NCBI GenBank assembly: GCA_964106645.2
Contig: OZ067052.1
Origin: Podarcis pityusensis
Taxonomy: Eukaryota
Length of the DNA: 64,000 nt
Reading direction: 5' to 3' (one strand)
Shown: piece by piece, positions 1 to 5,620 of the stretch
Layout: each line of letters opens with the position of its first letter
How positions within the stretch are numbered: the stretch's first letter is position 1
The notes under the pieces: model-generated
What the model was told of the DNA's origin: nothing
Seen by the model: only the letters and a program-made list of their open reading frames with translations
The model's database searches: none
Made by a program: the position numbers and the translations under genes

Positions 1-240
1 CCACTTCCTATGCACGTCATGCTCATCGGTTTTGGGTCCGGTTCATGTCTGTGATCTGCTCTCTCCCCCCCCCCCCCCCCCAGCTTCGGGAGCCACAGAA
101 AAAAAGCCGGGCATGAAGAGAGCAAACTTGGCTTAAGCCAGTCAGAGAATGAAAAGGCACCTCTGAGCCCACAAAGGAAGCAGAGGCAGCAGCGCAGCTG
201 ATGTGTGCTCAGCAAACATCCTAGAATGAAGCTCTGCAGA

Positions 241-581
241 AATACCATTCACTGAAGCCAAGTGTTGCAGGATTCCAGACAGGCAAAGGGAAGGACTTCT
301 TCACACAGAGCGTAATTAAATTGCAGGGTTTGCTCCCACAAGACATAGAGATGGTCATCAATTTCAGGGGCTATAAAAAGGGATGAAAGGCTATCAATGG
401 AATATTAGCTACAATGGCTGCGTTCTGCATCCAGCGTTGGAGGCTGTGTGCCTTTGAATATCAGTTGCTGAGAAATGCAATAGTGAAAATATTGCTGCTG
501 CACTCAGGTCCTTCTCGTGGGCTCCAAGAGTGGCTGGGGAAACTCAGCCAGATGGGCAGGGAAGGAATGAAGGAAGGAATG

Positions 582-625
<44 letters not shown>

Positions 626-706
626 GTGGTTGGCCACTGTGAGAACCAGATGCTGGACTAGACGGGTCTTGGACGTGACCCGGCTGCAGGGCAATTCTTA
701 TGTTCT
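241..706 (+). mobile_element. CR1-type LINE 3' fragment interrupted by (ATT)n
   Basis: ORF2-end-like sequence (ttcttcacacag...gtaattaaattg) and a squamate CR1-like tail (ggactagacggg...cttatgttct). Confidence 0.55.
583..624. repeat. (ATT)n microsatellite
   Basis: About 14 ATT units; this repeat creates the poly-Ile ORFs in the track. Confidence 0.95.
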
Positions 707-1503
707 GAGAGAAGGAGACCCACTTCTGGCCCCCAGGACAGGGCTTCTAGGGAAAAGGAGATCTTTCACACCCTGAGGTGCCGCCCCATCCTAGGCCCCT
801 GTTACAAACAGGCTTTCTGGGTTTATTCCTGAACTGCCACCAGCCTCAACAACAGGAGGCAGATGGGAGATTAGCTCTCCACCACAAGGGTGGAGCATTA
901 TCTTTCTTTACAAGTCTGCCCCTCCCAGCCTTGGCTCTTGGGCGTACTTCTTTGCTCCTGCTAGGGTGGCCCATGGGGAAATCTTTGCATCCTCCTGGCA
1001 AAAGAAAGGTCAGGGGAACTGATGGTTGCTCAACACCACCAAAGCAATTCAGCTGGAGAAGTACGGATTAATTGCCAGGTGGATACGAATGAAAACTTTT
1101 AAGATCATTAAGATCAATGAGCAGCAGGGAAGTAGCACAGCTGACAAACACTTAAGTAACAGCCTGACAAACGAAACCCTGTGGCTGCTAGCAAATTACA
1201 GCAATAGTAGCAAAGGGACAAAGCCTTGAGGAGCAGCACTGAGTGAAATATAATTCAGAAAGATGCACATTTGGGAACACAGCTCCTGTCATACTTAGCC
1301 TAATATAAATTTGGAATTTGCTATTACTGAAGGGGAGGGCAAGGATAGTTCCCAGAATATGTGAGTTCCTGCACAGCAGTCATTAAGAGCTGCGGCAGCA
1401 GTGGGGGACTCTAAGTCTAAGCTTTGCTTGATACAGAAAACCCAGCAACATCTCTAAGAAAGGATTGTCCAGCCTCTGCCTAAAGACCCCAGAGAGGCAA
1501 TAC

Positions 1504-1664
1504 AGGAAACTGCCTTATCCCAAGACAAACCATTGCTCCCTCGAGCTCAGTTTGGTGAGCACTGACTAGCAGCCATTCTTCCAGGGTTTCAGGCAGGGAG
1601 TCTTCTTTCACAGCCCTACCTGGAGATGCTGGGGATTGAACCACAAGAGCTCCACCACTGAGCT
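1504..1664 (-). mobile_element. tRNA-derived squamate SINE (Squam2-like)
   Basis: The reverse complement gives agctcagtggtggagc...ggttcaatccccagcatctccaggtagggctg...ggcagtttcct; same family as 44054-44245. Confidence 0.6.
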
Positions 1665-2090
1665 CTGTACCTTCCCAAGGGAGAGTCCACCATGGTTTCA
1701 GTGTTAGAACTGCTCTTGCCTTTAAGAAGCCTCTCCAAATGCTCATCTGAGCTCTCCCCTCCTGGGACATAAGGCCAGAATAGTTCTTTGTCCTTTTCAT
1801 AAGGCATTTTTATATATTGCTATTATCCACCCCTATAACCCAGTTCTTCAAGAATACACTTCGTTCCAGGACTTGCTCTCTTCAGCACCAGCCGTCTTTC
1901 CCTGCCTTCCTCTGTTCCAACCTGGTTACTAGAAAAGGAACAGAAAATGCCCTGTTGTCCCAATGCAAATCCATTCACCAGTCAATGCACAGTCCTGTTT
2001 GTACGAACACTTTGCAAGAAGCAGACCCAGGAAAAGCAGAGAGAGAAAAGCAGCAGGCAGGCAAGAGAACGCTAATGACAAGAACCTCAC

Positions 2091-5000
2091 CTGGCTTTTC
2101 CTTGTTCCCACGCGGATAGTCTCTTTCTTCAAGCCATTCTTCTCCTGTGAAGAAATGTCTCCAATTACTCCAAAGAGGGAGGGTTATTATGGTGGCATTT
2201 CCACAATCTCCCCGCAAAACCCTACATTAAGAGAAAGCTTGCACCAGCCAAGCCTTTCCTCACAAAGGGGCTGCCAAGCAGGGTGGTACAGTTCAGCCAT
2301 GGAAGTGGACACAGAAGGCATCCCAGGAAGCCCCACACTGGAACTTACCTGGGCAGACGCCTTCTGCAATGTTCGCTGCATTAAAAGGAACAGCCCTAAA
2401 GGATAGCTGAGCAATGTGCAATTAGATACCCATCCCTCTTTCCTGCCTCCCTTGTGTCAGATCTAAAATTCTACGCTTCTCTGGGCAGGGGCCCGCCTTT
2501 CCCTTTGTTGTGCTGTAAAGCACCATAACATTGTTGGCACAACCACAAACAACTATTACTAATGTCGTTTTTATTGCCTGACCTGACCAGCCCTAGCCCA
2601 GCAACCCTTGACAGGCTTCAGGGCAAAGAACACATGTGTCAAAGACCTGAAAGAAGCGGAGATTATTCAGTAGCACAACTGGCCCCAAGGGGCAGAGTCA
2701 TCTGCTTCCCAAGAGTCCCCCAAAGACCAGGTCGTGCAATGCAGGTAAGCAGCACATGGAACTAGCAAGGGCCCTGTAGGAAAAGGTGCCTGCAGAGCCA
2801 TACAGGGCACAGGACAAGATAGCACTAAGACAAACATTATCAGTTAAGGGCCTATCGAGTCCTAATTGAAGAGAGAAGTATTCCTCAGTAGGGTCAGTCG
2901 GTTGCGGTAAAGTTTCATCCCTAAATATGCCATAACACACACAGCTGAAAAGAGAGATTGTGTATGCATGTGTGTGGGTAAGAGAGACAGGGAGAGAAAT
3001 ATGAAGTCCTGGACAATAACCCAAGGCCAGAAAACCTTCAGACCTGTCAAAATGGCTGTTAAGATTTGGAAATATTTCCGCAGACCCGCAAAGAGGCCTG
3101 GAGAGACATACACCTCTTACCTGACTGTCCTGCAGCACCACCTTTGCCATCTCAATGAGGTTTGCAACCCAGGACCCAGTGAAGAGGAGGAGGAGAAAGA
3201 TGTCTTTGCTAGAGGGGAGAGGAAGACCTGCTGCCTTGCTCTGTCAGCGTCTAATCAAGGGAGTCTCTCCTTGCAAACTAGCCCCAACCTGGCAGCAGAG
3301 ATAAGGCAGAGAAGGGGAAAGGGCGTTCAAGGGGGGTGGGGAGAAGGAAGGAACTGAGCCTGGAGGGAACTGCAGCTGCAGGGGCTGCTTGCAAGGAACT
3401 GTCCAGGTTTTGCACAGAAAGAAATTGTTCTGGGAAAGGCAGGCAGCAGAAGACAATCTCCCAGGGCAAAGCAATTGACAAAGGGGCCATTTGCACAAGT
3501 GAACAAGGGACATTTCAACCACTTATTTGCAATATAGAGCAGGGGGAGGGTGGCGGCGCAGAAGGGGAGATACAATCAAACTGCATGGCAAACAACTATA
3601 ATCTCAATGGATCAGAATGCAGGAAGCTATCATCCTGATAACCAACTTGCTTCCACCCATGGTGGCCAGTGCTATCTGTGCCATCCACATAGTTCTGCAG
3701 CAAGGAAGTGCACAAGCTGGGCTGGTATTTACTTTCTAGGACATCTCCCAAGAGAATGTGGCTCCTCTTAGGATAGTGGCCATGGAAAGGAGTACATAGA
3801 CAAGAAATGGGATGCAGGGAGATAGGGCAAAACACAGGAATGGGACACAGGTGGGCAGTAGAGCTGAAAATGGGCAGTAGATATCAATAGTTCATAGGAG
3901 AGATTGGTAGTCACAAGGTACAGAAGCCCCATGTGTGACTTCTGGAAGTCAACCCCAAATCATCAGTTCCCTTCAGTCTTCATCAAACATAGCCATGAGC
4001 ACTAGCTGCTTAGCTTTAGGGAAGAAAAAGAGAGATACCATCAGGGTGCTGAAAGCAGCAGTTTCTGTGTTTGTAGGGCAATTATGCAGCCAAGGGGGAC
4101 AGAAAGAGGTGCTTAGTGTGAAGAGAGAAGAGAATTTGTTTGAATCTGGGACTGAAAACACAGAAACAGGCAAGCTGTGTAGGTGTCCACCATACAGTAT
4201 CACCCAAAAGGCTCAGGCCCAACAGCCCCAAATCCAGGCAAAGTCTCAGGTTTGGAAGCTAATATAACAGTCTCGCCATGGGAAGGCTATGGGATGTATT
4301 CCCAGCGGAACTTTGAAAGGGTAAGTGAAAGTGTGAGTGTGCATGCAGAAACTAGAAAAACAGCTTGATGAAGCACCCTATAGCAGAGGGGAATGCAAGA
4401 GGGCACCTGAAAGCAGCAAACCCACACTTCTCTTCGCCGCCACCGCACTCTGGCTCACCTTGGCTGCTAGTAGAAACTGCCTGGAGGTATCTGTACAGTG
4501 TACTACCTAACAGGGCAAAGGTGTGTCCTACAAAGCCACCCTGTGGATTAGGCAAGAGTGCCTTGCTACACAGAGGCAGAGCTCAAGTTGCACAAGGTTG
4601 TGCAAGAAACAAGAGGCATCTGATTTTGGCAGGAGCACATTCTAGAAATGCAACCTGCCTCCCTTGACCGGCAAAGGGCAAAATAGCCCTGGGAGAAACA
4701 CCAGCCTCTCCCAATGTTTCTCTGCAGATATAAAGCGGATTACAGGGATACTAACATGAAACACTTTGAGCACTTGAACGAGGCCAGTGCCCTGTTGTTG
4801 TTCTTGCTACTGCTGCTATCATAAACAAAATTGTGTGTGCGTGTATATAAATCAAGTTTCATAAAAATCAAACTAGCACTACTATTTAACAACTATATTC
4901 CCCCTTCCAAAGAAAAGCAGCACTGGAGGACACACAAATGTAGGAAGAGAGAGAGTCGGGGGTGGGGAAGAGTAGCAGATAGGCAGCCATGGTCGGAGAC

Positions 5001-5243
5001 AACCCCCGTCCCCAGGCCCACCCGCGGGGGCTGAACTTATTTGCATCTCATTAAAGACCCCCGCGACGCGCGTGAGGTCACCACCATGCACAGAGGTCAC
5101 CTCGCGACGTCCTCCGCCATTGGCTGAGCCCCTGGAAGCCCCGCCCCTTCGCCCCCTCTCTCCCTCCCCCTCCCCAAAGCGAGCGAAGCGCCGGTCAAGG
5201 CAGCGGCGGAGAGGCTCACCGAGGCGGGCGGAGAGCTGGTCAT
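2091..5243 (-). CDS. HMBS: Hydroxymethylbilane synthase (porphobilinogen deaminase), 5' part; gene presumably continues beyond window start
   Basis: Housekeeping exon 1 CDS 5220-5243 (ATG ACC AGC TCT CCG CCC GCC TCG|GTGAG, MTSSPPAS, phase 0) lies in a CpG island. The 54-bp exon 2091-2144 (cag|EKNGLKKETIRVGTRKSQ|gtgag) carries the PBGD IRVGTRKSQ motif. The position downstream of VPS11 matches synteny. Confidence 0.88.
3121..3150 (-). CDS. HMBS: Candidate alternative (erythroid-type) coding first exon of HMBS, MAKVVLQDSQ
   Basis: gagATGG Kozak context, exactly 10 codons, then a CAG|GTAAGA donor in phase 0, in frame with exon 2091-2144. GATA and CACCC motifs lie 150-190 nt upstream. Confidence 0.55.
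3236..3341 (-). promoter_or_regulatory. Candidate erythroid promoter of HMBS (GATA1/TAL1 composite, KLF1 CACCC, ARE-like)
   Basis: AGATAA at 3299-3304 is preceded by CTG-N7 (3289-3291). CCCCACCCC lies on the minus strand at about 3332-3341, and TGACAGAGCA (TGACnnnGC) on the minus strand at about 3237-3246. Confidence 0.45.
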
Positions 5244-5620
5244 GCCGCTGGTGGCGCCGAGCAGCGAAGGGGGCCGGCAGGCAGGCGGGGCGAGGGCTGG
5301 AGGGGGTCCCGCTCTGGGTCAACTAGGCGCTGCCGGTTCCATCGCCACTCCGCGGAGCCACGCATGCGCCTCCCCGTCCCGGACGTCACTTCCGGCTTCC
5401 TGTTCCTCCCACAGGCGGCTTTCCATGAATGGGAGGTGGCTCACGAGGCCCCTTTATACCGTAATTGCCGTCGACGCGGCGCACGCCCTTTTCGGAAACG
5501 CGAAGCCGGGGGCGCCGCTGTGTCGCTTCGCGCTCCGGTCCTTGCAGTGAGGCGCTGCACGTGGCTCCGGCCGCATATTTTACGGGCAGCGGAGCGTCTC
5601 CTGCCCGAGTACGCCAGTTA
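5000..5620 (-). promoter_or_regulatory. HMBS housekeeping CpG-island promoter
   Basis: CpG-dense. Contains an ETS/CRE composite CCGGAAGTGACGTCC (minus, 5381-5395), an NRF1-like CGCATGCGC (5361-5369), GC boxes and an E-box CACGTG at about 5558. Confidence 0.75.

Follow-up and report, generated by a model that had tools for sequence, protein, structure and literature searches.

Two described systems are close to the locus analysed here. In mammals, HMBS, the gene for porphobilinogen deaminase (PBGD), has an erythroid promoter in intron 1, and the corresponding transcript comprises exons 2–15 and yields a protein that starts at Met18, according to the accessible portions of the sources (PMC8945550; bioRxiv 2023.02.06.527353). 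GATA and CACC motifs have been reported in this promoter (PMC3463598, in excerpt), and a conserved DNase-sensitive sequence has been described in intron 1 of the human PBGD gene, in a report whose accessible part does not treat coding first exons (PMC3904948). In zebrafish, hmbsb is reported to have two promoters, with a start codon in each of the two first exons, and the second promoter, P2, was confirmed by 5′ RACE; P2 is induced by hypoxia and cold, alas2, gata1a and the globins are induced by hypoxia too, and the evolution of this exon layout is not discussed in the accessible sections of the paper (PMC4432979). Translation of the P2 primer gives YARDSDGR, which corresponds to a form of 10 codons, and that of the P1 primer corresponds to a form of 8 codons. 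Alternative coding first exons are therefore of a known kind; in reptiles they are annotated and apparently uninterpreted, and searches of the open-access literature turned up nothing on HMBS isoforms in reptiles or on their history.

The window, a stretch of 64,000 nucleotides from the lizard Podarcis pityusensis (contig OZ067052.1), carries on its minus strand the 5′ part of HMBS, which follows closely after VPS11. The remainder of HMBS and an H2A gene lie in the neighbouring stretch; the last HMBS exon shows 100% identity to a Podarcis lilfordi protein. Fusion models of VPS11 and HMBS exist in turtle, snake and bird (P0098, P0202 and P0231 of the protein set described below) and are likely read-through or annotation artefacts of this close tandem layout. 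Housekeeping exon 1, with a CpG-rich promoter upstream, has the coding part MTSSPPAS at 5220–5243 (the N-terminus of P0074 and P0077). The 54-nt exon at 2091–2144, shared by both transcripts and equivalent to mammalian exon 3, reads EKNGLKKETIRVGTRKSQ from 2144 to 2091; it lacks an in-frame ATG and has Lys where an alignment to human PBGD places Met18.

Within intron 1 lies an alternative first exon, at 3121–3240, whose 5′ end (3235–3245) is approximate and comes from read depth. Its coding part at 3121–3150 consists of an ATG and nine further codons, MAKVVLQDSQ, an N-terminus identical in P0001, P0075 and P0076. The ATG (3150–3148) is in a strong context, with G at both −3 and +4, and is the first one past the transcription start, as there is none between 3245 and 3151. 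The frame ends in phase 0 at CAG/GTAAGA (3121/3120), where the donor at 3115–3120 is used in reads joined to 2144. The combination of a strong donor and an ATG in frame with it turned up with a probability of 0.046 in 1000 dinucleotide shuffles of intron 1, for patterns chosen post hoc. The initial annotation had located all of the sequence features on which it relied correctly, namely the shared exon devoid of ATG, the ATG and its donor, the GATA and CACCC motifs and an acceptor-like TAG, with the gene on the minus strand.

The most probable explanation is that HMBS has here an alternative first exon that brings an in-frame start codon of its own. The exon is likely under the control of a red-cell promoter in intron 1, and this arrangement is likely ancestral in bony vertebrates. 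The promoter, with a CACCC box at about −100 and a GATA motif at about −60, would direct transcription from about 3240, a start taken from read coverage. The ATG at 3150 would then give MAKVVLQDSQ, and the phase-0 splice to the shared exon would produce an enzyme of 360 amino acids, compared with 358 predicted for the housekeeping form; that this message is translated is suggested by conservation of the frame. The main role of the ten-residue peptide is likely to provide a start codon, and it perhaps also alters N-terminal processing. In the alignment to human PBGD, these residues are outside the catalytic fold. In addition, the variant maps of human erythroid and ubiquitous PBGD match closely (r = 0.96, from a source available in part), so enzyme chemistry is unlikely to differ between the isoforms.

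Splicing of this exon was examined in seven RNA runs from close relatives, chosen by species label, of which five are raw reads (X20–X24) and two are contig sets (X1 and X5). The joint between 3121 and 2144 is present in two of the five raw runs, with 10 reads from 8 different starts in X22 and 2 reads in X24, and in one of the two contig sets, X5, which comes from a second organism and in which a contig carries it at a depth of 20. It is absent from X20, X21 and X23 and from the X1 contigs. The housekeeping joint, 5220 to 2144, was found in all five raw runs, giving ratios of alternative to exon-1 joints of 10:32 in X22 (a second count gave 40 rather than 32 housekeeping reads), 2:19 in X24, 0:25 in X23, 0:44 in X21 and 0:41 in X20. 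The alternative exon is thus real, that is, transcribed and spliced from 3121 to 2144, as the initial annotation had predicted. Its varying share among runs, although based on small counts from relatives, is as expected for a promoter restricted to some cell types. A read variant at 3136 is synonymous. Mean depth in X22 is 13.9 over 3131–3181 and 10.4 over 3182–3232, and falls to 1.27 over 3233–3283 and to zero above; because of this drop, the transcript 5′ end is placed near 3235–3245. The start near 3230 that had been proposed agrees with the coverage, which puts it at about 3230–3245. Separately, four X22 reads depart from the donor at 3120 into other sequence, with a consensus agreement of 0.74 and no match in the genome to which the window belongs, and are probably mixed reads.

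Some other features of the region were noted. A possible third stretch from an in-frame ATG to a donor, of 11 codons (MQRTLQKASAQ; 2349–2381, minus strand), ends in a second strong donor, CAG/GTAAGT; one X1 contig, at a depth of 42, joins 2349 to 2144, and coverage of the stretch is zero across the five raw runs. A third annotated N-terminus also occurs in Hemicordylus (P0101). The 150-codon open frame that would continue from the ATG at 3150 into a retained intron (2698–3150, minus strand) is probably due to chance, as the opposite strand nearby has frames 147 and 129 codons long. No match to an Rfam family was obtained in 2000–5600 at E ≤ 1.

The erythroid promoter of mammalian HMBS has a GATA motif at about −70, a CACCC box at about −100 and an NF-E2/AP-1 site at about −160. 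In the lizard, a putative CACCC box of the KLF1 type, CCCCACCCC, is at 3333–3341 on the minus strand, and a composite of a half E-box and GATA, CTG-N7-AGATAA, the only one in intron 1, is at 3289–3304 on the plus strand; its GATA motif reads TTATCT at 3304–3299 on the minus strand, seven bases from the CTG half-site. By itself, this composite is at chance level (P of at least one = 0.36), while the full set of donor, ATG, GATA and CACCC within 300 nt has P = 0.01 (both from 1000 dinucleotide shuffles of intron 1, with patterns chosen post hoc). The GATA motif is therefore weaker evidence than had been assumed, both for this reason and because it lies inside sequence that also occurs in a transposon. 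Control of the alternative promoter by GATA1 and KLF1 is suggested by these motifs, and erythroid specificity of the exon by the motifs together with the zebrafish parallel.

It is also conceivable, though rather unlikely, that the exon is real and coding and that its promoter is not specific to red cells, responding for instance to hypoxia, cold or another tissue. This would agree with zebrafish P2, reported as hypoxia- and cold-induced and not as erythroid in the accessible part of that study (PMC4432979), and with the lizard sequence, where no NF-E2/AP-1 consensus is matched within 2000–5600. Against it, GATA and CACCC motifs occur a short distance 5′ of the start, the mammalian promoter in the same intron is described as erythroid (PMC8945550, in part), and in zebrafish hypoxia is reported to co-induce an erythroid programme (PMC4432979, likewise in part). 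A red-cell promoter thus continues to be the preferred reading.

The promoter core, 70–80 nt within 3236–3316 (minus strand), is common to the interior of one subfamily of miniature transposons (MITEs) of hAT type. A genome search with 3225–3345 gave 39 other matches among the 40 scored of 103 candidates, with 85–97% identity and centred on 3314–3245, and an exact 27-mer of the core occurs 13 times in the genome, HMBS included. The MITE copies are 450–900 nt long and have terminal repeats CAG(T/G)GGC.TAGC and 8-bp target duplications, a length presumably diagnostic of the hAT type. Among 31 copies, the duplications match at 8/8 positions in 5, at 7/8 in 4, at 6/8 in 8 and at 5/8 or fewer in 14; two of the 33 copies were left out of this scoring because their right end was not found. 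A whole-element query returned 253 candidates, and at least 40 copies bear the core (loci L006–L097). Compared with the column majority of the 31 copies, HMBS agrees at 64/68 positions in the core, which is within the range among the copies themselves, and at 12/48 upstream and 14/45 downstream. Only the core matches; neither the MITE ends nor the flanking interior was found at the HMBS site. The HMBS-like piece adjoins the shared MITE terminus, and TTATCT is intact in 23 of the 31 copies. Among 27 copies found by their right end alone, 16 contain the core and 11 have the same end with another interior. Another short element with GGGCGTAGC-type ends is present downstream of the H2A gene (L003, about 3370–3520).

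On balance, we lean towards the reading that one MITE subfamily captured HMBS DNA. Capture is favoured because the promoter appears to be older than the element, because the CACCC box and the transcription start are outside the shared piece and because relatives devoid of the core exist. Against capture, no second host donor for the middle 100 nt of the MITE, next to the core, appeared among the 30 loci examined of 40 scored, which were all copies of the element, so capture of several fragments is not supported. A trimmed and exapted MITE insertion could instead be the source of the HMBS core. Much more doubtful is a wider scenario, in which the MITE would have picked up the GATA core from an old red-cell promoter of HMBS and carried it to at least 100 sites, some of which would now act as GATA1/TAL1 elements, and in which the coding erythroid first exon would be ancestral in bony vertebrates, recoded in mammals and lost in birds. 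If true, a DNA transposon would have spread an erythroid switch of its host. No literature on a MITE-shared HMBS core was found. Of the present results, the sharing of this core is the more unexpected one, because it would be a testable vertebrate case of a transposon that takes up and spreads a tissue-specific promoter module.

The distribution of the second N-terminus was followed in 270 proteins obtained from searches and cluster listings, mostly automatic models, of which 218 contain an IRVGTR-type motif. Outside lacertids this comparison concerns proteins only, and the location of the exon in intron 1 was established for the present genome. The two N-termini of the window are the annotated isoforms X1 and X2 in Podarcis and Zootoca, and the MAKVVLQDSQ form is already annotated as porphobilinogen deaminase isoform X1 in Podarcis, Lacerta and Zootoca (e.g. 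XP_028563799.1). A homologous second N-terminus accompanies the Ser/Pro-rich exon-1 form in Lacerta, Rhineura (MAEVVLQHSQ), Pogona, Sceloporus, Anolis carolinensis, Varanus (MANVVLLHNQ), Elgaria, Hemicordylus, Tiliqua and Eublepharis; the Anolis sagrei records seen have the exon-1 form only. The proposal that a distinct N-terminus would be conserved in related lizards is thus borne out by these annotated lacertid isoforms and their homologues.

In snakes of several families (e.g. P0191 and P0199), the second N-terminus is reduced to four codons, MAAE. Beyond squamates, the gharial pairs MENCTSRNSQ with MSAT, and paired N-termini are also found in Discoglossus, Xenopus, lungfish, gar (MENGVPKSTR), arowana and zebrafish, while turtles, tuatara and Pelodytes have the MEN type alone in the records seen. 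In birds, by contrast, a second short N-terminus is absent among the 37 proteins with the shared exon (67 bird proteins in total, e.g. P0021, P0050 and P0245). Most of 27 long bird proteins extend the exon-1 peptide by about 20–30 residues and look like read-through of a very short intron 1, and the erythroid promoter may have been lost or moved in this group. Other bird models start immediately ahead of exon 4 and do not contain the IRVGTRKSQ exon.

Coding second exons might have evolved independently in fish, in frogs, in lizards and in the other reptiles, which we consider improbable. The peptides do differ strongly between groups, their length ranges from 4 codons in snakes to 11, lizard and fish forms share length and Met and little else, and the lizard promoter partly matches a transposon. 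On the other hand, a length of ten codons is found repeatedly, in lacertids, Varanus, geckos, turtles, gharial, gar, arowana and zebrafish; starts with MEN, which in turtles, gharial, tuatara and gar belong to 10-codon forms, are common to gar, frogs, turtles, tuatara and gharial; and the tuatara pattern ME..L..SQ bridges to the lacertid form. Common descent is thus preferred, and the coding second exon is likely older than amniotes. In this respect the initial annotation, which had supposed an ancestral amniote arrangement, is supported as to an old origin and was too narrow in extent, as the layout reaches frog, gar, arowana and zebrafish.

The internal Met has a very different distribution. 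Among the proteins with the motif (the 52 without it were left out of this count), a Met within 9 residues before IRVGTR is present in 54/54 from mammals, platypus and marsupials included, and in 5/164 from other animals, namely three frogs, one gecko and one case in which it is the start Met. Shared-exon Met residues at other positions were seen in some frogs and one gecko (P0152, P0218, P0167 and P0106), and Discoglossus combines an internal Met with two first exons that are both coding. The mammalian internal Met is therefore likely a derived gain. In the simplest history, an ancestral coding second exon would have been followed by gain of Met18 in the shared exon on the mammal stem, after which the exon-2 start codon, no longer needed, would have been lost. 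The idea that the lizard exon is coding because the internal Met is missing probably reverses the order of events, given that the coding exon looks ancestral and the Met later, and that Discoglossus has both. If so, the textbook view would be turned around, with the truncated red-cell PBGD of mammals as a derived exception; in most vertebrates the second isoform appears to have its own start codon and N-terminus. It would also be a clean case of a start codon that moves from one exon to another while the promoter stays put.

The weakest alternative, raised in the initial annotation and very improbable as the main use of the exon, is that 3208–3121 is an 88-nt cassette spliced after exon 1, with a polypyrimidine tract and acceptor-like TAG at 3209–3211 (minus strand), whose inclusion would create an early stop and whose mRNA would be concealed by decay; it is largely refuted, since reads and an X5 contig pass straight through the TAG, depth over 3182–3232 in X22 (10.4) is above the maximum of 7.4 for an exon starting at 3208 and does not end at 3232, no joint of exon 1 to 3208 and no loose end there was listed in any of the seven runs, and X1 and X5 have one extra nucleotide upstream of the ATG, which would shift the cassette frame. 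Coverage through 3209 and the missing exon-1 join therefore indicate a first exon.

Finally, the locus can be set against the known systems. DNA transposons that capture host fragments have been described above all in plants, for instance as transduplication by Pack-TYPE elements (PMC8616336, in part). Like these, the lizard MITE is non-autonomous, has terminal repeats and a target duplication, and has an interior that matches a host locus with sharp borders; in contrast to the described examples, it is a vertebrate hAT-type element and the piece is a promoter fragment of 70–80 nt. The isoforms X1 of Podarcis, Lacerta and Zootoca in RefSeq/GenBank have identical or near-identical N-termini, as automatic models whose names carry no tissue or regulatory meaning. 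Zebrafish hmbsb resembles the lizard gene in its two promoters, in its two start-codon-bearing first exons joined to a common exon and in the ten residues of the alternative N-terminus, and differs in the peptide sequence and in being reported as hypoxia- and cold-induced rather than erythroid (PMC4432979, in part). Mammalian erythroid HMBS shares with the lizard gene a second promoter and first exon in intron 1, joined to the same 54-nt exon, and GATA and CACCC motifs just upstream of the start, with the difference that the lizard promoter is devoid of an NF-E2 consensus. Mammalian exon 2 is non-coding, and initiation at Met18 in exon 3 leaves the erythroid protein 17 N-terminal residues shorter. 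In the lizard, where that position is Lys, the start codon lies inside the alternative exon itself, and the predicted alternative form is two residues longer than the housekeeping one.
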